DNA of 64,000 nt from a bacterium. GTDB lineage: Bacteria; Patescibacteriota; Minisyncoccia; Phycocordibacterales; UBA9973. Shown here in pieces: positions 1,587 through 12,623 of the stretch. Every line of letters starts with the position of its first letter. Within the stretch, counting starts at the first letter, position 1. Below the pieces are notes generated by a model. That model was given only the letters and a program-made list of their open reading frames with translations, ran no database searches and was not told the DNA's origin. A program made the position numbers and the translations under genes. Where the stretch lies: assembly GCA_021824345.1 (NCBI GenBank), contig JAKAKW010000006.1, positions 10,257 to 74,256 on the forward strand, written 5' to 3'.

Positions 1587-2909
1587 ATGAAAGAAATTTT
1601 CAAACATATAATAATGTACATCCTGCAAGCCGAATCAAGGCTGGTTCTTTGGAGGTACAAGCCCAAGGTGGTGGCCATTACCGGCAGCGTGGGCAAGACT
1701 TCCACCAAAGACGCCGTATACTCGGCTCTGTCCGGCATGACCCATGTGCGCAAGAGCGAAAAGAGCTACAACAGCGAATTCGGCCTTCCGCTTACCATTC
1801 TCGGCATGCCGACCGGCTGGAGCAATCCGTTCCTATGGATTGCGAACGTTGCCAAAGGATTGTGGCTTTTCCTCTGGCCGCATCGCTACCCAAAATGGCT
1901 GGTGCTTGAGGCGGGAGTAGGCAAGCCGGGAGACATGAAGCGCACCGCGGGCTGGATCAAGACCGACGCGGTGATCGTCACCGCCATAGGGGAAACGCCG
2001 GTGCACATAGAATTTTTTGAATCCCGCAAACACCTCATTGAAGAGAAGAGCGGGCTTATCAAAACCTTGAAGCCCGACGGAGTTTTGATTTTGAACGCGG
2101 ACGACGAAGCGGTGCTTTCCATGAAAGAAAAAACGAAATGCCGGGTGAAAACTTACGGCTTCGGAGACAAAGCGGAACTCAAAGGTTCCGGCGAAAATAT
2201 TTATTACGACGAAAGCGGAGTGCCCCGCGGAACTCTTTTCCGGGTGGATGAAGAGGGCACCAGTCTTCCGGTGGTAATAGAGGGCGTGTTCGGCAGTAAT
2301 CATGTTTATGCCGCCATGGCCACGCTTGCCCTGGCCAGCGCGCTCGGTTTGAATATGATTGAAACGGCGGACGCTCTCAAGAAATATGATCTTCCTCCGG
2401 GCCGGATGCGGCTCCTCCGAGGGATAAACGGATCGCTTATCATAGACGATACCTACAACTCTTCTCCCTTCGCCTGCAAGGCGTCTCTTGAAACTCTCGG
2501 GCAAGTAAAGACGTCCGGCAGGAGAATCGCGGTTCTCGGGGACATGCTGGAGCTCGGCAAGCATACGGAAGACGAGCACAGAAAAATAGGGGAGATCGCC
2601 CGGGAAAATGCAAATGTTCTTCTTGTGGTGGGACAGAGGGCGGAGAAAATAAAGGAAGGGGCGCTTTCGGCCGGCATGCAGGCGGGGGCAATTGAGCAGT
2701 TTCCGAATTCATACTCCGCCGGAGATTTTTTGAAGACTTTTGTCCAGCCCGGAGACCTGGTTTTGATCAAGGGTTCCCAGGGCATGCGCATGGAGAGGGC
2801 AGTGGCCGCCATTTTGGATGAAAGTACAGGCAGTGACGGCAACGGAGGAAAACAGGACAGAAAAAAACTCCTCGTCCGGCAGGACAAGGAGTGGTTGAGG
2901 AAGAAGTAG
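1587..2909 (+). CDS. murF: UDP-MurNAc-tripeptide:D-Ala-D-Ala ligase
   Basis: ITGSVGKTSTK P-loop, DDTYNSSP, LGDMLELG and KGSQGMRME motifs. Confidence 0.93.
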   Translation: MKEIFKHIIMYILQAESRLVLWRYKPKVVAITGSVGKTSTKDAVYSALSGMTHVRKSEKSYNSEFGLPLTILGMPTGWSNPFLWIANVAKGLWLFLWPHRYPKWLVLEAGVGKPGDMKRTAGWIKTDAVIVTAIGETPVHIEFFESRKHLIEEKSGLIKTLKPDGVLILNADDEAVLSMKEKTKCRVKTYGFGDKAELKGSGENIYYDESGVPRGTLFRVDEEGTSLPVVIEGVFGSNHVYAAMATLALASALGLNMIETADALKKYDLPPGRMRLLRGINGSLIIDDTYNSSPFACKASLETLGQVKTSGRRIAVLGDMLELGKHTEDEHRKIGEIARENANVLLVVGQRAEKIKEGALSAGMQAGAIEQFPNSYSAGDFLKTFVQPGDLVLIKGSQGMRMERAVAAILDESTGSDGNGGKQDRKKLLVRQDKEWLRKK

Positions 2910-2975
2910 AAAAGGAGAGTAGAAGGTAAAATAAAAAGCGCAGAGGTATCAAGGGATACTTGCGCCGGCATTTGC

Positions 2976-3122
2976 CTAAAGTTTATCAAATTTGTGCAAT
3001 ATCTTTCCTAGGAGATATGAATTTCTCCTGTAAAAAAATTTACGCATCGCAAAGGTGAATAAAAGTATCAAGGATAAACCGATCATTAAAAACAATATGA
3101 GCCCAATGTCTCCAGTCTCCAT
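2976..3122 (-). CDS. Small single-TM membrane protein (48 aa), not in the ORF track
   Basis: METGDIGLILFLMIGLSLILLFTFAMRKFFYRR...: hydrophobic stretch followed by basic residues, with a purine-rich RBS and a consensus promoter upstream. Confidence 0.55.
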   Translation of the reverse strand: METGDIGLILFLMIGLSLILLFTFAMRKFFYRRNSYLLGKILHKFDKL

Positions 3123-3156
3123 GACTTTTTCCTTTCCTGTTTATATATTTCTTATC

Positions 3157-3184
3157 ATTATACACAAGTCTTGTATTTTGTCAA
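3157..3184 (-). promoter_or_regulatory. Consensus sigma70 promoter TTGACA-N16-TATAAT
   Basis: Minus strand reads TTGACAaaatacaagacttgtgTATAAT and points to the 48-aa ORF. Confidence 0.65.
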
Positions 3185-3222
3185 GTATTTTCGCTGTTTA
3201 AAAGTAAGCATATAATATCCGT

Positions 3223-3759
3223 ATGACTGAAGAATTTAAATTGCCGTACAAGAGGCCGGAAGAAAAGGATTTGGGCGCTCATGAAATAAAGTGGACATAT
3301 AATAAAAAAGCAAAGGCTGTTTTTTATCTGCGCGATCTTTCGGAAAAAAAGCTTGAGGAAATATATAAGGAATATGCCGATAGCCCCGAGATGAACAAAG
3401 CAATTGATGATTTGCTTGCCATCTGGGAAAAGAATGACGTCTATAAAGAAACTTTGCCGTTGGAGATCGTGAATTTTATGGTAGACCCGCTGTATGAAGA
3501 AGATTACATATCAGCATCGGACAAGTCTGCACTGGAAGCGGCGCTTATAAGACTGCGTAATGCCGAGGAAAGCATAAAAGAATTGCAAAACGGGATATTT
3601 AAAGAAAGGAATTGGTTTGAAACAAAGAATAGAGGAGGTATGTATAACAGAGTTATTGTTTACCTGAAGGCGCAAATCGCCGAAGGGGATATGTATTTAG
3701 TGAGAATAGGCGATATTACTAACAAGATGAAAAGAAGGATCAAAGAATTATCGAAGTAA
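3223..3759 (+). CDS. Hypothetical helical protein
   Basis: 178-aa ORF with TATAAT 6 nt upstream of ATG; no recognised motif. Confidence 0.7.
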   Translation: MTEEFKLPYKRPEEKDLGAHEIKWTYNKKAKAVFYLRDLSEKKLEEIYKEYADSPEMNKAIDDLLAIWEKNDVYKETLPLEIVNFMVDPLYEEDYISASDKSALEAALIRLRNAEESIKELQNGIFKERNWFETKNRGGMYNRVIVYLKAQIAEGDMYLVRIGDITNKMKRRIKELSK

Positions 3760-3776
3760 TTCCTTTACAATTTATT

Positions 3777-3787
3777 TGGTGACCTTA
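3777..3787 (-). repeat. att junction: displaced tRNA-Glu 3' end including CCA
   Basis: Minus strand TAAGGTCACCA matches the tRNA-Glu 3' end (TAAGGTCA) plus CCA. Confidence 0.8.
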
Positions 3788-3988
3788 ATGTTACCTAACT
3801 TAAAACTCTATGTAAATACATTCAGAGAATTGGACAAGATTATCTCCAATTTTGAAAAACCTTTAGTTCTCAACACCTTGCACGCTGATGCTCTTCAGAG
3901 ATCTATCCCTTAATGGTATTTAAATACTTCGTTGTTGTATAAACACTGCTATATACTTGTTGAGTAAACTAATGTATAATGAATCCAT

Positions 3989-4246
3989 ATGGGGCAAAAA
4001 ATTGATAAGAAAAAATTAATTGAATATTTGCAAACTAAGTGGAAAAGTCCTTGCCCTCTCTGTGGTGTGGGAAATTGGAATGTCTCTGATGGTGTTTTTG
4101 AATTAAGAGAATTTAATGAAGGCAATATGATTATTGGCGGAACTCCTATTGTTCCAGTGATTCCAATAACGTGCGGTAATTGTGGAAATACTGTATTAAT
4201 AAATGCTATTACAGCAAGATTTATCGGAACAGACAGCAATAAATGA
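3989..4246 (+). CDS. Small zinc-ribbon protein
   Basis: CPLC...CGNC pairs; stop overlaps the next start (ATGA). Confidence 0.8.
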   Translation: MGQKIDKKKLIEYLQTKWKSPCPLCGVGNWNVSDGVFELREFNEGNMIIGGTPIVPVIPITCGNCGNTVLINAITARFIGTDSNK

Positions 4247-4836
4247 ATGGCAATGATATAAAATATTCCCAAGATTTTGAACTTCTCATGCCTCAAAAAC
4301 AGAAGTCCTATCCAATACCTGTTAATGAATGGTCTGTCTTAAAAAGAAAAATAAATAATATTTCAGAAAATGCAAATTTCTGGCATACATCCGGATCAAT
4401 ATTGATTGGTGTTGCAATCCCATCGTTTATCACTGCACTAACAGGATTCAATGAGTTAATATACTGGGGTGCCTTTGCCGTAACTGCTATTGCAGGAGGA
4501 CTTTGTTTTTATTTTGGCGTTGAACAACGCAACGTCCAAAATGAAAAAAAGGAAGATGTTATTGAATATATGGGGGTTATTGAGGAGAGATTCCGTATAA
4601 ATAATGCTTTATTTATAAACTCTGCTATGTATGGTATTGATGATAAATATATTGATATTACTTCCTCATTAAATTCCCATGTAGCTGATAGCAAGTTGTC
4701 AGTTAAAATATGCAATGAACTAGCTGGTGATGACCCTTATCCAGGAAAACAGAAGGAGTTAAAAATTGAATATACATTAGAAGGATTAAGACAGTCCACT
4801 ACTCTCAGCGAAGGCAGTATCCTTAATTTAGGATAA
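4243..4836 (+). CDS. 2TM membrane protein with C-terminal SUEL/DUF3395-like lectin-type beta domain
   Basis: Two hydrophobic helices, then the pattern SAMYG...DITSSL...GDDPYPGKQKELKIEY. Confidence 0.7.
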   Translation: MNGNDIKYSQDFELLMPQKQKSYPIPVNEWSVLKRKINNISENANFWHTSGSILIGVAIPSFITALTGFNELIYWGAFAVTAIAGGLCFYFGVEQRNVQNEKKEDVIEYMGVIEERFRINNALFINSAMYGIDDKYIDITSSLNSHVADSKLSVKICNELAGDDPYPGKQKELKIEYTLEGLRQSTTLSEGSILNLG

Positions 4837-4919
4837 TATCTTCTTTTTTCCAAAAGATATATTGTAATATTTAATTTCTTTCTGTAGACATTCTGTATTA
4901 GATGTTGTAGTATTACAGA

Positions 4920-5570
4920 ATGTCAATAAATAGAGAAGAACTTACTTCCACGTTTTTAAAGATGAGAGATTTGTTTGTTGCTGACCCAACTAATGCCGTA
5001 AGAAGTAAATCTTTCATTACTGCATTTCAAGACTATTGTGAATACGAATTGAGGGCTAGAAATCTAGAAGTAAATGGGTTTCATATAGAAAAGGAATGGA
5101 AAATTGAGGTTGAAAGGGGGAGAGTAGAAGCAGATGTAGGCATCTTTGATAAAGATAATCAACCTGTCTTAATAGTTGATGTCAGAAGCCAAATGAGTTC
5201 TCTTGGAAAGAATTTTAATAACTATATAAGAATGAAAGCAGGAGAAGTTGAGAGTGTGCATAAAAAATACCCCAATTGTGTTGATGGTCTAGTATACATT
5301 CATCAAGCCGGAGATTTAAAAACAAATGGTAACATAAATCCTGTTGGCGTATTTAATTATAGTAATGCTGTAAAACAATTAGGTCTATTGTCGGGGCGTA
5401 AAGATGCCAATGGTCCTGCAAGCCTTTTTGAACAAGTTGCATATTGTATTATAGATTTCAACAGTCCTGCGCCTAAACTGTCCGACATCCATGATGTTCT
5501 TGATCTTCAGTTAGAGAATTTTTTTGATAATCTAGCGGACACACTCAAAGAACGCACAAACATAGATTAA
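4920..5570 (+). CDS. Putative type II restriction endonuclease (PD-(D/E)xK fold, XhoI/PaeR7I-like motif)
   Basis: ADVGI...VDVRSQMSSLGKNFNNY resembles ExKSQ..S.G.NFNN; convergent with a DNA methyltransferase. Confidence 0.7.
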   Translation: MSINREELTSTFLKMRDLFVADPTNAVRSKSFITAFQDYCEYELRARNLEVNGFHIEKEWKIEVERGRVEADVGIFDKDNQPVLIVDVRSQMSSLGKNFNNYIRMKAGEVESVHKKYPNCVDGLVYIHQAGDLKTNGNINPVGVFNYSNAVKQLGLLSGRKDANGPASLFEQVAYCIIDFNSPAPKLSDIHDVLDLQLENFFDNLADTLKERTNID

Positions 5571-7390
5571 TTTACCAATTGGTATTTCTCAGATAAGAAC
5601 TTGTTGATTTCGTTCTTTTCTCCTAATGCAAGAAGCTTTCTTTTTTCTTCTAATGAGAAGCTTGGAATTGAAAAATTCTTTACATAGTTCTTTGCAAATG
5701 ATTTAAAGCCACCAGAGTAGTTTTTACTCGTCTTTTTAATGTAAAACCACATTAAGTCTGAATTTAAAACTTTTTCTAGTATTCGGAAATCCTCCTGTTT
5801 CTTAGGATAGATTGCATAACCACAGTAAAAAAGAGTTTCTTCTTCTTCAACTACAACAAAAGAAGGTCTGTTACCCATCATTGGCAATATAATTTTCTTA
5901 CCAAAACCATTTAAACCCTGTGTTCTTCCGTAAGCATACCAAGCTTCATACTTCTTTAACCCTTTATCTCTTAGGTCAAGTTCATTTTTTATAGCACACA
6001 AATAATCGTAGGTTTTTGGAAACCTTGATTTTATGTGTGATTCAGGAAGTATTTTTGCTCTACCCTTGTTCCCATATTCATAAGGATATATTATTCTTTC
6101 CTTGTTATTTTTAAGAGTTTCTAAATCCTTAACCTTATTTGGTTTAATTATCTTTTTTGTGAAATCTCGTTCTATTTGATACGTTTTTCCATTATATTCT
6201 TTTAAGAGGTACTTGTTATCATTGTTATCATTTACTAGAAACAAATCATTATTTAAAGTGGCTAATCCGGTTATAAATTTGTCTACATATTTAAATAATG
6301 GTGAACCAGAATTTTCAATTCTGAATATATTTTCAGCATCTTTTTTTGATAAAAATCTCCATTCTTTTTTGCCCAAGAGAAAGTGGTTTAAATTATCAAA
6401 TTTAAGTTTGCTTAGTTCTTTTATTTTTTCTTTTTTATCAACTAAACTGAACTTAATTTCATCAGCTCCTTTTTTATTCAGTATTGTTATGCAAGTATAA
6501 GTTATTGCTCCTTCAAAAATTTGCCATCCATTAAAATCAACTATTTTCTCTAAATATTTGTTTTTGAATATAAATTCACGTACAAGCTGTGCATTAGAGG
6601 ATGTTAAATAAGTGTTTGGAGTTATGAAACCTATTATCCCTGCACTGTGTGTAATATCTACTGCCAATTCAAAAAAGGGAATATACAAATCTACGTTTCC
6701 AAAATTTGCAGTTTCCCATTTTTTAATATTCTGCCTAACACTAAATCTTAAATTTTTTGTTCTAACGTATGGCGGGTTTCCAATAATATAATTGAAACCA
6801 GAAAAAGATGGAATGTGTTTCTTCCAATTGAAATCTAAACTATCGCCTTCAAATATATTGAATTCAAAATCATTATCTTCTCCGCTTGTAATAGCTAACA
6901 AGGATAAAATTATTTTTGTCCTTAAAACACTATTAGGTAAAATATCTACTCCATATATATATTTTTTAAATATTTCTTTAAATGAAAGGTTAAATTTTTT
7001 ATTTAAAAATTTTGATGCCTCAATCAAGAAAGCTCCGCTGCCACATGCAGGATCACATACTGTGCCCAGATCCCTAACGGTTTCTTGAACAATATATGAG
7101 ACCACTCCCGTTGGGGTATAATATGAACCGTTAACCTTTCTATCTTCCTCATTAACATTTAATTCATATAAACCTTCCAATAATTCAATATCAGGAACAA
7201 TTAATCTAGAATCAAACCAGAAGGTAATTCCTTGATTAATATTTCGTTCAATAATTGATTTAATTAGTTTGTTTTTTACTGCCTTTATTCCAGCTTTTTT
7301 AAGAACATTACTTATCACAAAAGTCTCTACATCCTGGAAAGAGTAGCAGGACAATTCTTTACTGATTTTTATAATGGGATAGTCCATCAT
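5567..7390 (-). CDS. N6-adenine DNA methyltransferase, gamma class (Eco57I/TaqI-like)
   Basis: GSYYTP, DPACGSGAFL (motif I), IIGNPPY (motif IV) and a C-terminal target recognition domain. Confidence 0.93.
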   Translation of the reverse strand: MMDYPIIKISKELSCYSFQDVETFVISNVLKKAGIKAVKNKLIKSIIERNINQGITFWFDSRLIVPDIELLEGLYELNVNEEDRKVNGSYYTPTGVVSYIVQETVRDLGTVCDPACGSGAFLIEASKFLNKKFNLSFKEIFKKYIYGVDILPNSVLRTKIILSLLAITSGEDNDFEFNIFEGDSLDFNWKKHIPSFSGFNYIIGNPPYVRTKNLRFSVRQNIKKWETANFGNVDLYIPFFELAVDITHSAGIIGFITPNTYLTSSNAQLVREFIFKNKYLEKIVDFNGWQIFEGAITYTCITILNKKGADEIKFSLVDKKEKIKELSKLKFDNLNHFLLGKKEWRFLSKKDAENIFRIENSGSPLFKYVDKFITGLATLNNDLFLVNDNNDNKYLLKEYNGKTYQIERDFTKKIIKPNKVKDLETLKNNKERIIYPYEYGNKGRAKILPESHIKSRFPKTYDYLCAIKNELDLRDKGLKKYEAWYAYGRTQGLNGFGKKIILPMMGNRPSFVVVEEEETLFYCGYAIYPKKQEDFRILEKVLNSDLMWFYIKKTSKNYSGGFKSFAKNYVKNFSIPSFSLEEKRKLLALGEKNEINKFLSEKYQLVN

Positions 7391-7707
7391 ACAGTTAATT
7401 ATAACTTACTTTTCCTAAAATAGTTAACATATTTATATCCTTATTTCTCAACATAATCTGTTTGTTTTTTATAAAGGTATTTTTATATTTAATATAGTTT
7501 TGTTAAGAAATAGCGAACATTCACAATATCTATTAAAAATATGTTGGAAAATAAAGATACTAATAAATAAATGGGCAATTATCATTGTTTTTGGTTTTTG
7601 GGTTAAAAACCAACTTTTCATCAACTTTGTTTATAAGTTTAAACAAAGTTTTTTCTGTGGGCATAAATTTATGGTTTTTTGGTATAAACCATCTTTTCAC
7701 AGAATTC

Positions 7708-7827
7708 CTAGAACCATTTTATACCTACCTTAAAGGCAATGCTTATTACTAAAATTAAAATGGTTACTAAAAGAATCACAATCCAGTTAAATGCGTTTTT
7801 GAATGATTTGTAGTCTTGGTCATCCAT
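7708..7827 (-). CDS. 39-aa single-TM peptide (type I toxin/kil-like)
   Basis: MDDQDYKSFKNAFNWIVILLVTILILVISIAFKVGIKWF; lies immediately downstream of the structured RNA. Confidence 0.45.
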   Translation of the reverse strand: MDDQDYKSFKNAFNWIVILLVTILILVISIAFKVGIKWF

Positions 7828-7857
7828 AATCTTGATTGATTTAGCTGACCAGAAACC

Positions 7858-7945
7858 AAAAAGCTCCTAGCCAGACATACAGGTTTCCCTGTAAGGCACG
7901 GTCAGTGCAAACTCTGACTAGGAGTTTTTTACCACTGACCGTGTC
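7858..7945 (-). ncRNA. Structured RNA, c4/CI antisense-like
   Basis: Closing stem 7864-7875/7913-7924, inner UACAGG-GAAA-CCUGUA hairpin, and an 11-nt loop complementary to 7933-7943. Confidence 0.5.
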
Positions 7946-8080
7946 TCACATTCACCATGCCTCTATTGCTAAAGGTTTAGGCTACTTTGTATTAAATTGT
8001 ATGTAGTGATTTTACCTCTTTTGCTTGTAAAAACAAAGTAGGTTATTTGTTTTCTTGATTATAGCGTGTAGAATAAGGAC

Positions 8081-8794
8081 ATGAAAGGGGTTAATGAAAC
8101 AAAGAAATATAACAATCTGATTGAATCAGGACTGGAACTATTATCAAAAGCCCAAAGCTATATAGATACTTTTGACCACAACAGAGTGTATGGTCCTTCT
8201 GATTTAGAAGAGGTGAGTTCGTCTTTTGACATAGTAGAGGAATATCATAATTGGGTGAAAAGCATAATTAAATTTTATAAGTCAGATGATGATAAAGATA
8301 AGATTCTTACCTCTTTCTTTAAGGAAGTAGATGGTGTTCCTACTTTGGACTGGCTAGAGGATAATCACTATATGGAAGGTGATCCAATGCCAGCTAGTAT
8401 TGCTACTTCAATTCTAACTGAGGGGAAGAAAAAGCTAGAATATATCAGAAAAATATATGGCACAGAAAATGTTGGTAATGATAAGAAAATAATTCTGCTG
8501 GTAAATAAGAAAACAAATGAAATTACAGTGAAGGATAAAAATCATTTAAAGCATTCCTTCCGCAGGACATATGGAATAAACAAACGTCTTGGATATTTAA
8601 TCAAGATATACAAAACTCCAAAGATTGGTGGGGCTGTTTTAGCAGGTACTCCTAAGTTACAAAACATTAGTAAAGAATTGAAGAAAATCAATGCTGACTT
8701 AATGGAAGATTTGGATTTGCAGGATAATGTGATTATGAATGATAACAACTCCGGCTACTACATAAACCCAAAATACATTTTTGAATTTACTTAA
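8081..8794 (+). CDS. Hypothetical protein, possible C-terminal winged-helix DNA-binding domain
   Basis: 237 aa; C-terminal helix plus NNSGYYIN wing-like ending. Confidence 0.65.
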   Translation: MKGVNETKKYNNLIESGLELLSKAQSYIDTFDHNRVYGPSDLEEVSSSFDIVEEYHNWVKSIIKFYKSDDDKDKILTSFFKEVDGVPTLDWLEDNHYMEGDPMPASIATSILTEGKKKLEYIRKIYGTENVGNDKKIILLVNKKTNEITVKDKNHLKHSFRRTYGINKRLGYLIKIYKTPKIGGAVLAGTPKLQNISKELKKINADLMEDLDLQDNVIMNDNNSGYYINPKYIFEFT

Positions 8795-8837
8795 ACAAGA
8801 TTTCTTAGTAAACCTTTTGTTGTTGTTAACCTAAACT

Positions 8838-8868
8838 AAACAAACCTTACCTACAAAGGTTTGTTTTC
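8838..8868 (+). terminator. Hairpin downstream of 8081-8794
   Basis: AAACAAACCTT...AAGGTTTGTTT inverted repeat. Confidence 0.45.
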
Positions 8869-8927
8869 ATTTTAACCCTACATAATTATAACTATTTTTG
8901 CGTACTTCTTTTTTCTAAAGTTAGGAT

Positions 8928-9128
8928 GTGAAGCCAGAAATAGAAAAAATAATTGAACTCTTGCAACAGATAGAACCAGAAGCAAGCAAGGAAGAATTAG
9001 AGGCAAAAGCCCAGAATATTTGGGAAATTGCCCTTTTCTTGGTTCAGCTGAAGCTTAGAGAGCACTCTAAACAGCCAAAACCAATGGATTTGAGGACTTT
9101 GCCAGAAAATAGGGGGAATTCACCTTAG
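8928..9128 (+). CDS. Small hypothetical protein upstream of the integrase
   Basis: 66-aa GTG-start ORF with AGGA RBS; charged helical sequence. Confidence 0.5.
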   Translation: MKPEIEKIIELLQQIEPEASKEELEAKAQNIWEIALFLVQLKLREHSKQPKPMDLRTLPENRGNSP

Positions 9129-9238
9129 TTATGGAAAGTCGTGCTTATAACAAATATTACAAGTTTTCGGATTCTAATTATTAGTAATGAGATTTTGAGA
9201 TTATAAAATTAAGAGGTTTACTTAAAGTAATAAGATAT

Positions 9239-10786
9239 ATGAAGAACAAAAAAAATATTAGCAAGCCCAATAATGACATCATCTACATCAGGGTAAGCTC
9301 AAAAGAACAGATTGAGAATTTTTCTTTGGACAATCAAGAAAAGTTCTGCAGAGAGTTTTGCAGGAGAACTGAACATAATGTATTGGCAGTTTTCAGAGAG
9401 GAAGGAGAATCAGCCAAGACAGCAGCCAGAACTCAACTGCAAAAAATGATAAGGTTTTGTGAGGTAAACAAAAAGCAGGTTGATAGGGTTGTAATTTACA
9501 AGGTAGATAGATTCTTCAGGAATGCTGGAGAGCACCTTGCTCTAAGAGCCACATTAAGAAAATTAAATATTTCTCTTGTGTCCGTTACTGAAGCATTTGA
9601 TGATACTCCAAGTGGCAAACTTCAGGAAACAATGTTGGCAGCCTTTGCCCAATTTGACAATGATGTCCGATCTCAAAGGACATATGAAGGCATGAGAGCA
9701 AGAGCCTTGAAAGGATTATGGCCAAATATTGCACCATGGGGCTATGTTAATACCAAAGATAAGTCAGGCAATAAAATTATTGCACCTCATCCTGAAAGAG
9801 CTCCTGTTGTGAAAATGATTTTTCAGGCTTATGCCACTGGAAAGTATAGTTTTAAGGAAATAGCATCTATGGCAAACAAATCTGGGCAGAAATCAAGGCA
9901 TGGATTGAGAATGAGCAAACAATTGGTTGTAAAAATAATTAAGAACCCAATTTACTATGGAAGAATTGCCATTCAGAAGCTTGATGTTGATGTGCAGGGA
10001 AGCCATGAGCCAATAGTTTCTAAGGAGTTATATGATGAAGCAAACTCTGGCAAAAGAAGTATTCATGGTCGGAAAATGCCCAGGAACAGGGATAGTCCCA
10101 CTTTTCCCTTGCGTGGGATTAAGTGCGGTGGTTGCTACAAAAGCATAACTGGTGGAAAGACCAGAAGTAAAACAGGCAGGTATTATCAATACTATGGCTG
10201 TTTTTGTGGTGATTGTTCCAAAAGGACCGCCATTCCCAAAGAGGATTTTGAGAATGAGTTTACAAAGTTCCTCTTTAAAATTACTCCTAGTGATAAACAC
10301 CTTAATGTATTAGGGGAGGCAATTAAGCTTGCCCACAAGAGTGAATTTAACTACATTCTGAATGAGGAAAAAAGATTGAACAACAGAATGGAGGAATTAA
10401 AGGAAAGGAAGGACAAGCTGTTGGATTTGAGAATTGAAGGGAAAATAAATGATGAAGATTTTACTCCTGCCAATGATAAATTGAAATTACAGATCGGAGA
10501 AGTTGAAAAAGAATTGAGTGAGCTGTCTTCTCCTGAACTTGAAATAGATAATGTGGTTGATTCCGGAATAAGTTTTATAAAGAATTTTCCTTATATATGG
10601 AGAAAACTGCATCCAAAGGATTTGAGAGTTTTAAGAAACCTTCTTTTCATGGGAAATCTTGTTTATCATTATCCAACTATCAAAACCCCTGAAGCATCCT
10701 GTATCTACAAGGTAAAACCTGAATTATTGGATGATAAGAATCGTTTTGTGACCTTACCGGGAATCGAACCCGGATTACTTGCTTGA
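9239..10786 (+). CDS. Large serine recombinase (integrase)
   Basis: YIRVSS catalytic Ser, VYK/DRFFRN, recombinase domain, Zn ribbon (CGGC...C..C) and coiled coil. The last codons lie antisense within tRNA-Glu. Confidence 0.95.
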   Translation: MKNKKNISKPNNDIIYIRVSSKEQIENFSLDNQEKFCREFCRRTEHNVLAVFREEGESAKTAARTQLQKMIRFCEVNKKQVDRVVIYKVDRFFRNAGEHLALRATLRKLNISLVSVTEAFDDTPSGKLQETMLAAFAQFDNDVRSQRTYEGMRARALKGLWPNIAPWGYVNTKDKSGNKIIAPHPERAPVVKMIFQAYATGKYSFKEIASMANKSGQKSRHGLRMSKQLVVKIIKNPIYYGRIAIQKLDVDVQGSHEPIVSKELYDEANSGKRSIHGRKMPRNRDSPTFPLRGIKCGGCYKSITGGKTRSKTGRYYQYYGCFCGDCSKRTAIPKEDFENEFTKFLFKITPSDKHLNVLGEAIKLAHKSEFNYILNEEKRLNNRMEELKERKDKLLDLRIEGKINDEDFTPANDKLKLQIGEVEKELSELSSPELEIDNVVDSGISFIKNFPYIWRKLHPKDLRVLRNLLFMGNLVYHYPTIKTPEASCIYKVKPELLDDKNRFVTLPGIEPGLLA

Positions 10787-10820
10787 GAAGCAAGTGTCCT
10801 AACCGTTAGACGATAAGGCC
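10749..10820 (-). tRNA. tRNA-Glu(CTC)
   Basis: GGCCTTA...TAAGGTC acceptor stem, CTTGC-TTCTCAA-GCAAG anticodon arm, GGTTCGATTCC T arm. Confidence 0.95.
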
Positions 10821-11497: not shown

Positions 11498-11529
11498 GGC
11501 CGGCCTCCGACCCAGGTCGGAGGCCGGCC
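11498..11529. terminator. 15-bp perfect inverted repeat, likely rmuC terminator
   Basis: GGCCGGCCTCCGACC-CA-GGTCGGAGGCCGGCC. Confidence 0.65.
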
Positions 11530-11555: not shown

Positions 11556-12623
11556 CTAATCTTCCGCCTTCGGCTTTTCCAGGGCGATGGAAGACAGCTC
11601 TGGCGAAGAGCCGGCGATTTTAAGAATGTCTTTGTCTATCTTCTTGAGTTCCTTGCCCGAAGCGTTGTAGTGGTTTACCACAGTGCTAAGCGAACTGCCC
11701 AGCTTCCCATGGTATTCGTCATAGGCTTTCAAATGCCGGCCGAGGTCTTCCACTTTCTTGATGATTTCCTTGGCGGACTCTTCTATGTGCAAGGCTTTCA
11801 GTCCCTGAAGCACAGTCTGAAGGTACGCCAAGAAAGAGGTGGGGGAAGTGATGATCACTTTGTATTTGCCGGCAGCGCGCTCTATCAAGCTCTCCGCGTT
11901 TTCTTCGGAGGTGTTTCCCCCGATCTTGTTTATTAAAAGATCGTAGTAAATCGCCTCGTGCGGGATGAACATAAAAGCAAAATCCGTGGTGCCTTGCTGG
12001 GGTTGGACGTATTTTGCCGTCTCGGCAATCCTATTTTTCAAATCGTTTACGAAAACGGTTTCTAGTTTCTTCTTTTCAGCCGGATCGCGTTCCTCTACCA
12101 TACGGTTGTAGTTTTCCAGAGAGAACTTTGAATCAATCGGTATGATTTTGTCTTTCACGAATACCGCGGCGTCCACGATTGTGCCGTCGGGAAATCCGTA
12201 TTGCATCTGATAGCTTCCGGCCGGCAGGACGTTTTTGAGCACCGTCTCCAAGTAATATTCTCCCAGGATTCCGCGCTGTTTGGGATTCTTAAGAATATCT
12301 TGCAGATTCTGCAATTGGTCGGCGAAGGAAATCACTTGCTTGTTTGTCTCGTCCAAGCGAGTAAGGCGCTCGGTGATGTCTCGAATGATTTTGTTGGATT
12401 CAGAAGAATGGAATTTTAGACTCTCGTTCATCTGCTTGCTTGTTTCGCCGATCTTGGAATCAACCGTCCGGGACAAGTCGTTTAATTGCTGGAGGATCAG
12501 TTGCAGGCCGGTGTCATTTTCCGTTTTTCCCGGCGTATTTTTATTGCCAAGAAAAAGCATAACAGCCAGTCCTCCCGCCATTACCGCCAATATTCCTATT
12601 ATTATCCACAACGCCGTTTCCAT
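11556..12623 (-). CDS. rmuC: DNA recombination protein RmuC
   Basis: N-terminal TM, coiled coil, RGILGE, PIDSKF and FMFIPHE motifs. Confidence 0.92.
   Translation of the reverse strand: METALWIIIGILAVMAGGLAVMLFLGNKNTPGKTENDTGLQLILQQLNDLSRTVDSKIGETSKQMNESLKFHSSESNKIIRDITERLTRLDETNKQVISFADQLQNLQDILKNPKQRGILGEYYLETVLKNVLPAGSYQMQYGFPDGTIVDAAVFVKDKIIPIDSKFSLENYNRMVEERDPAEKKKLETVFVNDLKNRIAETAKYVQPQQGTTDFAFMFIPHEAIYYDLLINKIGGNTSEENAESLIERAAGKYKVIITSPTSFLAYLQTVLQGLKALHIEESAKEIIKKVEDLGRHLKAYDEYHGKLGSSLSTVVNHYNASGKELKKIDKDILKIAGSSPELSSIALEKPKAED

Follow-up and report, generated by a model that had tools for sequence, protein, structure and literature searches.

We analysed a 64,000-nucleotide stretch of contig JAKAKW010000006.1 (assembly GCA_021824345.1, positions 10,257 to 74,256 of the forward strand; hereafter the window) from a Patescibacteriota bacterium of the lineage UBA9973, in which a 6,969-bp island is inserted at the 3′ tip of a tRNA-Glu gene. 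The island encodes a large serine integrase whose open reading frame (ORF) runs through one of the two attachment (att) junctions and ends antisense within the tRNA gene. Judged from the comparisons below, the attachment site of the element (attP) lies within the integrase gene, and crossover inside the ORF would give the enzyme two C termini, that is, two isoforms set by recombination state. A first-pass annotation of this DNA had put this reading forward, and the junctions, the empty site and the conservation of the exchanged tail bear it out. The features on which the argument turns are the following.

1587..2909, plus strand: murF-like Mur ligase, host flank (family match, synteny in relatives)
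3777..3787, minus strand: distal att junction, the displaced tRNA-Glu 3′ end with CCA (unique 11-mer, rebuilt empty site, genome G005, locus L096)
3788..3913, plus strand: C-terminal tail, 41 codons, of the integrase in its excised form (conservation across 10 elements of the clade)
9239..10786, plus strand: large serine integrase, integrated form, 515 amino acids (PF00239, PF07508, structure model)
10748..10756, plus strand: proximal att junction within the integrase ORF, V504-T505-L506 (core match, relatives)
10748..10820, minus strand: tRNA-Glu(CTC), intact, without encoded CCA (tRNA calls, rebuilt site)
11556..12623, minus strand: rmuC, host flank (family match, synteny in relatives)

The island, delimited by two copies of a 9-nt core (3779–3787 and 10748–10756), has a GC content of 0.24–0.40, compared with ~0.5 in its flanks. 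The core 9-mer occurs just twice in the whole host genome (G000; 833 kb, 16 contigs), and the antisense of CCA (3777–3779) precedes its left copy; the resulting 11-mer is unique in the genome. Chance expectations in 7.8 kb are 0.023 matches for the 9-mer and 0.0014 for the 11-mer. The repeat finder did not include the 9-nt pair among the families it listed. The distal junction is ordered as chromosome arm, core and then the tail-coding arm of the element. Closing the site in silico restores a 75-nt tRNA-Glu(CTC) with an encoded CCA, which only 7 of the 44 tRNAs of G000 possess, while the tRNA-Glu of the integrated state (10748–10820, minus strand) ends one base past the discriminator; the attB arm comprises the acceptor 3′ strand and T-loop of this tRNA. 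The expectation that a relative lacking the island would join at the core was confirmed by the same-genus genome G005, in which murF, a tRNA-Glu(CTC) with encoded CCA and rmuC adjoin one another. Because the site is free of the island in G005 and is occupied by a different island at the same place in L096, which begins 22 nt past murF, the insertion site is evidently real. The 9-nt core proposed in the first-pass annotation holds as the exact repeat, with its two sites, but the actual overlap is shorter, since the block common to both junctions shrinks in relatives to 6–7 nt or less; we infer crossover at ~10749–10751 and 3780–3782.

Pfam matches and fold both identify the recombinase as a large serine integrase. 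Matches to PF00239 (residues 14–160) and PF07508 (residues 185–270) both exceed their cut-offs, Y16-R18-V19-S20 is invariant in 43 aligned rows, the zinc-ribbon cysteines 296, 299, 321 and 326 are nearly invariant, and the structure model places coiled-coil helices at residues 352–428. Identities as CcrB or XisF were rejected, with NCBIfam scores of 144 against a cut-off of 900 and 107 against 375, respectively. The ORF reads the core as V-T-L and terminates in PGIEPGLLA, with its last 12 residues read antisense from the tRNA. When the circle is rebuilt in silico, the gene encodes instead a 547-amino-acid integrase whose final 41 residues derive from 3788–3910, followed by TAA at 3911–3913. 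The V-T-L reading, the PGIEPGLLA end and the 41 codons up to TAA, as given by the first-pass annotation, were all reproduced; integration replaces a 41-residue tail by nine residues off the tRNA antisense. The other two frames past the left core are open for just 4 and 2 codons. The tail codons up to ~3805 also serve as the attP arm, and tail residues ~10–27 form an amphipathic helix with a hydrophobic moment of 0.61.

To place this arrangement in its family, we fetched related loci from genomes (80), metagenomes (80) and viral contigs (1); the counts given here are over 160 loci, with duplicates between the collections retained and with a T-loop motif that may match by chance in a few. The query is matched to residue 470 or beyond by 122 of the 160. 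In 106 of these 122 the T-loop-antisense motif (G/R-x-E-P/L) is read in the integrase frame, and for 77 of the 106 ARAGORN calls a tRNA on the opposite strand. Over all 160 loci the targets are tRNA-Glu (30), tRNA-Lys (27), tRNA-Ala (23) and tRNA-Val (1), which shows that tRNA 3′ ends are widely used as targets by serine integrases. The tRNA-encoded ends follow the tRNA that was hit (VTS, SAN, SAS, LPA, IEL and others), and the -LLA end is found in 1 of 127 integrated forms, the window's own protein; the 127 rows include four with mis-called T-loops (L027, L128, L149 and L151), which were dropped from the DNA-only site analysis described below.

Several loci depart from the simple arrangement. 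Tail-bearing distal junctions occur in tandem in L053 (four, ~0.9 kb apart), L079 (three), L055, L028, L042 and L044, and we regard them as stacked remnants of repeated integration at one tRNA. At L211 (G305:C1, 12973–14114), a 1,068-bp element at tRNA-Glu(CTC) has an intact tail and both junctions and lacks an integrase gene, a deleted or non-autonomous form. G000 itself encodes a distant large serine recombinase (L002, G000:C8:14737-16351; 27% identity) that runs antisense through tRNA-Ser(CGA) in another frame, near a contig end and with no distal site assigned, as well as a third large serine recombinase on contig C10 (L003) with no overlapping tRNA. On the same contig, ARAGORN calls a tRNA-Ile with TAT as its anticodon, an unusual one for bacteria (G000:C10:149501-149575).

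So that the likeness of the peptides would play no part in the selection, we identified distal sites from DNA alone, requiring the same central dinucleotide as the tRNA end and 6 of 7 core matches, with the T-loop hexamer allowed at a variable shift. In the tail-coding arm, the hexamer of the tRNA T-loop recurs with a displacement of 5 bp outward: the +5 shift accounts for 57 sites, compared with 1–9 sites for each other shift from 0 to 10. This shift fits the 4–5 bp offset between attP and attB known for large serine integrases (10.1101/2025.01.03.631226), and only a single pair of arms, that of the tRNA and that of the tail, has it. In 33 of the 52 distinct sites, which are mostly from Acidobacteriota, the integrase frame ends exactly 16 codons beyond the att arm, whereas the same-stop counts in the other two frames are 1 and 0. 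Identity by codon position in the DNA-selected sites is 0.44/0.52/0.33 (column permutation p 0.0005).

In the clade of the window, all ten tails are open for 41–47 codons, seven of them for exactly 41, compared with 1 of 20 in the other frames; their identity by codon position is 0.80/0.80/0.52 (p 0.00075) at a mean DNA identity of 74%. In 36 tails picked by peptide, the ratio of nonsynonymous to synonymous variation (pN/pS) is 0.59 in frame and 1.21 and 1.40 in the shifted frames. Every close relative with at least 7.5 kb of upstream sequence has a tail (L004, L009/L085/L089, L011/L088, L096 and L099; weakly L012/L098). A profile of the 25-residue tail matched 2,239 representatives at E up to 0.001, the best 150 of which are 25–191 amino acids long. 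Of the 11 matches that a search with the tail profile returned across 301 genomes of the order, several arose because two padded rows contained letters read antisense from the tRNA; besides the tail of G000, those of G305, G123 and G221 are genuine. The tails of both clades look like amphipathic helices.

The integrase end and the tail also occur contiguously in nature, in 5 of 158 proteins (P0003, P0016, P0070, P0123 and P0097) and at L030 and L043. In the latter two, frameshifted integrase genes (L030, G041:C6 near 23960; L043 near 11516) continue directly into the tail, and at L030 a search of the ~39 kb beyond the fusion yielded no tRNA; these are possibly excised-form copies inserted elsewhere, or assembly errors. 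At L072, an integrase fragment is fused to the tail at a tandem junction. Searches for full-length proteins of the excised form yielded, by word index, 6 and 2 short proteins and, by profile, only fragments of fused forms. Because tails are open and conserved in relatives, end at a fixed stop and are found in natural fusions, the excised-form tail is by all indications the selected part of the gene, with the tRNA-antisense end apparently a filler. The earlier expectation that distal tails would be more open and more conserved than chance was borne out by a wide margin across relatives.

To relate the tail to the fold, we modelled residues 1–506. The model is confident to residue ~490 and loose beyond it, with predicted local distance difference test (pLDDT) values of 80–95 for most blocks up to 490, and its best structural matches are the SPbeta and Bxb1 integrases. 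In SPbeta integrase, the extreme C terminus and a helix of the recombination directionality factor (RDF) at the hinge control direction; the C-terminal segment lines the pocket for the RDF helix and is needed for excision (10.1101/2025.01.03.631226). Since solved integrases align only to residues ~486–500 of the model, with SPbeta residue 535 corresponding to model residue 489, the crossover is predicted to fall just past the canonical fold, and the tail would be an extra helix right after the toggle segment. A two-chain prediction of the tail with residues 275–506 scored 0.46, compared with 0.00 for the best of three controls, with a contact agreement of at least 74% and a partner pLDDT of at least 57. 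This is a weak pass: of 157 solved complexes, 116 come up to the prediction mark, as do 2 of 215 mismatches, and at scores of 0.60 or less the set contains 18 solved complexes and both mismatches. A model of the natural fragment P0016, made with no alignment, was poor (mean pLDDT 54.8) and was set aside.

Serine integrase genes that span their att sites, and the idea of two isoforms, are already known. DsiB of Dehalococcoides is a large serine recombinase of ~540 amino acids with its att overlap always at the 3′ end of the gene, which runs antisense into the 3′ end of the transfer-messenger RNA (tmRNA) gene ssrA, in tandem islands (McMurdie et al. 2011, PMC3146451); its authors suggest that it is fully functional only on the circle or beside a neighbouring island (PMC3146451). 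The island described here shares the att overlap, the antisense run into an RNA gene 3′ end and the tandem islands, and some of its relatives have a small DsiA-like recombinase. It differs in its target, tRNA-Glu instead of tmRNA (the tmRNA of G000 is on contig C10), and in its conserved distal tail, of which the available DsiB text describes no counterpart; the six-gene dsi module (dsiA, recF-like, parB, mom, large ORF) is not among the scanned island ORFs, the integrase having been set against DsiB by description. In streptococcal rumA integrative and conjugative elements (ICEs), a single serine integrase has attR in its gene and its C terminus changes in length and sequence on integration (Ambroset et al. 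2016, PMC4701971); reasoning from Mx8, the authors predict that the two forms differ in function (PMC4701971). Those elements differ in their protein-gene target, in the reciprocal exchange of 3′ ends and in being large conjugative elements, and the available text describes no test of selection on the tail. The first-pass annotation had named the tyrosine integrases of Mx8 and SSV1 as precedents but overlooked these serine-integrase ones.

In Mx8, attP lies within int and the target is a tRNA; a 112-residue C terminus of the integrase (IntP/IntX) gives way to 13 residues and activity falls (cited in PMC4701971 and PMC4383910). The crossover within the integrase ORF and the two C termini are common to both systems, although the Mx8 enzyme is a tyrosine recombinase and the one here a serine recombinase. 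SSV-family integrases likewise have attP in int and a tRNA target (PMC7253208), but these tyrosine enzymes are divided into two halves, neither of them active; the exchange here would involve just a terminal helix that lies past the canonical fold. Canonical large serine integrases (SPbeta SprA, Bxb1, LI/A118 and phiC31) have the same domain order, fold and 5-bp outward shift in attP; they are, however, single fixed proteins that a separate RDF switches, while the site here is markedly asymmetric, with the motif only in the tRNA arm and tail arm. According to the available text of the Islander report of 2015, serine integrases were not known to target tRNA genes, and our literature search (with subscription papers, supplements and TIGER 2020 outside its scope) turned up no paper on serine integrases that form a tRNA-targeting family and have an attP tail under selection. 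The available text of Integrase-On-Demand (2026) likewise contains nothing on the subject. Three points go beyond the papers considered here: the tRNA tip as the target, the geometry of the att sites and the evidence that selection acts on the excised-form tail.

We consider a switch of activity or directionality, set by the recombination state, to be the likeliest role of the exchange, and hold it with slightly better than even confidence. The island is a small integrative element whose integrase targets the discriminator/CCA end of a tRNA gene, with attP in the 3′ end of its own gene. In the mechanism that we propose, the excised circle would encode the complete 547-amino-acid enzyme, the integration-proficient form, whose tail helix would pack on the zinc-ribbon/coiled-coil hinge region, beside the segment corresponding to the SPbeta directionality toggle. 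Integration would remove this helix and leave a 515-amino-acid enzyme with the whole canonical fold and a filler end. This shorter form would have an altered activity or direction and integrate more weakly, and excision would be left to it, probably aided by the product of a 66-codon ORF just upstream of the integrase. Antisense transcription of the tRNA across the gene end may add damping, and the overall effect would be a recombination-state switch, as in Mx8. In a bolder version, which we regard as doubtful, the tail would be a built-in directionality element whose helix fills the hinge pocket where RDF helices bind; integration would then rewrite an integrative enzyme into an excisive one, or unmask the RDF site, across thousands of elements that read the T-loop as a motif and are able to target many tRNA 3′ tips in several phyla.

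Several observations weigh against the proposed switch, or against the selection on which it depends. The open frame at the window's locus is only borderline: in 100,000 mononucleotide shuffles of 3788–3988, a frame open for at least 41 codons has P = 0.047, and 17% of all island positions, coding DNA included, precede 41 open codons. The single locus is thus no more than suggestive, and the case is carried by the comparative data. Of the ten tails in the window's clade, a core match led to the first five and a peptide profile to the other five, which inflates the conservation given above; when the first five are taken alone, the codon-position effect is not significant (p 0.15–0.30). Because the loci are kin rather than independent samples, the p-values overstate the significance. 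The tails of the two clades do not align (hhalign probability 0.6%), and a common mechanism is assumed. The complex prediction is weak and gives no interface, and parts of one gene may pass by likeness. Searches of plasmid, phage and viral collections found no close relative in excised form (best ~31% identity among plasmids and phages), and only one viral locus was found. Finally, neither a circle joint nor an empty-site joint is present in any of the four contig sets of one study, in which depth is flat, although contigs drop rare forms and cannot show absence. Of the two junctions that the first-pass annotation had pointed to, the circle joint was not seen in these contig sets, while the empty site is present in the relative G005. 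Short contigs in which other sequence adjoins the tRNA end carry a mismatch and resemble the tRNA-Glu of other organisms; they were rejected as excision products.

An alternative is that the tail is needed for any activity and the integrated enzyme is dead, a one-way latch, with excision depending on tailed enzyme from an incoming or tandem element, or on the tail as a free peptide started from GTG or ATG at the distal junction. We judge this unlikely, although the absence of excision from the contig sets of that study agrees with it, as does the proposal that DsiB needs the circle, or a position downstream of an adjacent island, in order to work (PMC3146451). The multi-tail junctions of L053 and L079 and the fragment-tail fusion in L072 would offer sources of tailed enzyme; the distal junction lies on the same strand as upstream host genes, with the tail beginning 19 nt past a same-strand ORF (22 nt past murF in L096), and the tail as a separate chain achieved its weak pass in the two-chain prediction. 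On the other side, the canonical fold is complete in the tailless form, with high model confidence, and solved integrases end near the same point; moreover, the GTG is dictated by the tRNA end and is thus no sign of a start codon.

Still less likely, in our estimate, is that the exchange of tails sets the half-life of the enzyme. A C-terminal AA is a signal for ClpXP, and some mycobacteriophages use a C-terminal tag as a switch. The first-pass annotation had suggested that the hydrophobic -LLA end could be a degron or a directionality switch in place of an RDF; this was not sustained as a conserved feature, because -LLA is confined to the one form in 127, the end is set by the tRNA that was hit and ClpX and Lon were not detected. 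The exchange as a whole may stand in for an RDF, but the conserved 66-amino-acid ORF could itself encode one. G000, which is 99.97% complete, encodes ClpP, SmpB, a tmRNA with a probable tag frame ending in -AFA and one 906-amino-acid ClpB/C-like ATPase, but has no match to ClpX and no Lon match over the cut-off. The tails of the window's clade end in P, I, T or Y rather than AA, and the window's own in P, and we rejected an ssrA-like degron switch for the window on these grounds. Any degron would more likely reside on the excised-form tail of the Acidobacteriota branch and give a short pulse of integrase, given that 19 of its 33 fixed-length tails end in -AA and 29 in -A; 88 of the best 150 profile matches also end in -AA, a count biased by the profile. 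Even there, a degron alone leaves the conserved helix face unexplained (W14/L15 in one clade; F14, F15, L18, I21, I22 and F25 in the other). That the gene simply extends across att, with its apparent tail an effect of conserved att DNA or of common ancestry, is very improbable and is largely refuted by the DNA-only site analysis: the open frame at the window locus alone (P ~0.05), the constraint on the first nine codons as DNA (the +5 hexamer) and the divergence of DsiB alignments at the same end, in integrated forms (PMC3146451), would fit it, but beyond the att arm third positions vary far more than first and second ones, the stop lies at one fixed codon and the pN/pS of the peptide-picked tails is depressed in frame only.

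The proposed switch, if real, bears on directionality control, a central question for large serine integrases, which are widely used in genome writing. The family would supply natural paired isoforms that differ in one terminal helix beside a known toggle segment, so that the idea raised for DsiB (2011) and the rumA ICE (2016) becomes directly testable. Database entries are the truncated, tRNA-tailed forms, so that a screen built on the annotated sequences may be assaying the wrong protein; the identity blocks are also too short for island finders that rely on tRNA fragments.

The remaining island features are as follows.

3989..4246, plus strand: cargo ORF, 85 amino acids, two CxxC pairs, no family (family scans)
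4243..4836, plus strand: cargo ORF, 197 amino acids, two hydrophobic segments, C-terminal PF11875 match at the cut-off
4920..5570, plus strand: probable restriction endonuclease (sub-cut-off HSDR_N_2 match, E 0.0076)
5567..7390, minus strand: adenine DNA methyltransferase (family matches to Eco57I, N6_Mtase and TaqI_C)
7866..7983, minus strand: LOOT structured RNA (Rfam RF03000; 53.8 bits, gathering threshold 46.4)
8081..8794, plus strand: ORF, 237 amino acids, no family (family scans)
8928..9128, plus strand: helical ORF, 66 amino acids, just upstream of the integrase (homologs in relatives)

The 66-amino-acid ORF is a candidate RDF or regulator. Homologs with 29–57% identity lie upstream of the integrase in most close relatives; the family scans assigned it to no family, and an atlas search returned nothing above its bars. 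An 11-bp inverted repeat precedes it at 8838–8866. Between this ORF and the integrase, L009, L085, L087, L089–L093, L095 and L096 have a small catalytic-domain-only serine-recombinase ORF, located ~500 nt upstream of the integrase like DsiA/CcrA and not present in the window's island. The C-terminal half of the 237-amino-acid ORF recurs upstream of the integrase in L011/L088, L090 and L091. Of 9 related loci of the clade, 8 have the LOOT RNA, an orphan RNA located inside the island and 0.7–1.4 kb ahead of the integrase module (the loci listed are the window, L004, L006, L011, L093, L095, L096, L100 and L212). The RNA was found in 0 of 7 loci from Acidobacteriota and Nitrospira, and it may act in cis in transfer or replication. 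The product of 4920..5570, convergent with the methylase gene, is probably a restriction endonuclease, its role being inferred from position; at position 5305 within it, all four contig sets have C where the window has A.

Outside the att-bounded island, the AT-rich stretch 2910–3778 may be an older insertion. A search of it for a second core or tail found none, and its 178-amino-acid ORF (3223–3759) has no assigned family. The promoter scan performed at chance level (32 hits, 35.3 expected), and a perfect sigma-70-like consensus lies within this stretch on the minus strand (3184–3157). Beyond rmuC is a 14-bp GC-rich hairpin that resembles a bidirectional terminator (11498–11529).

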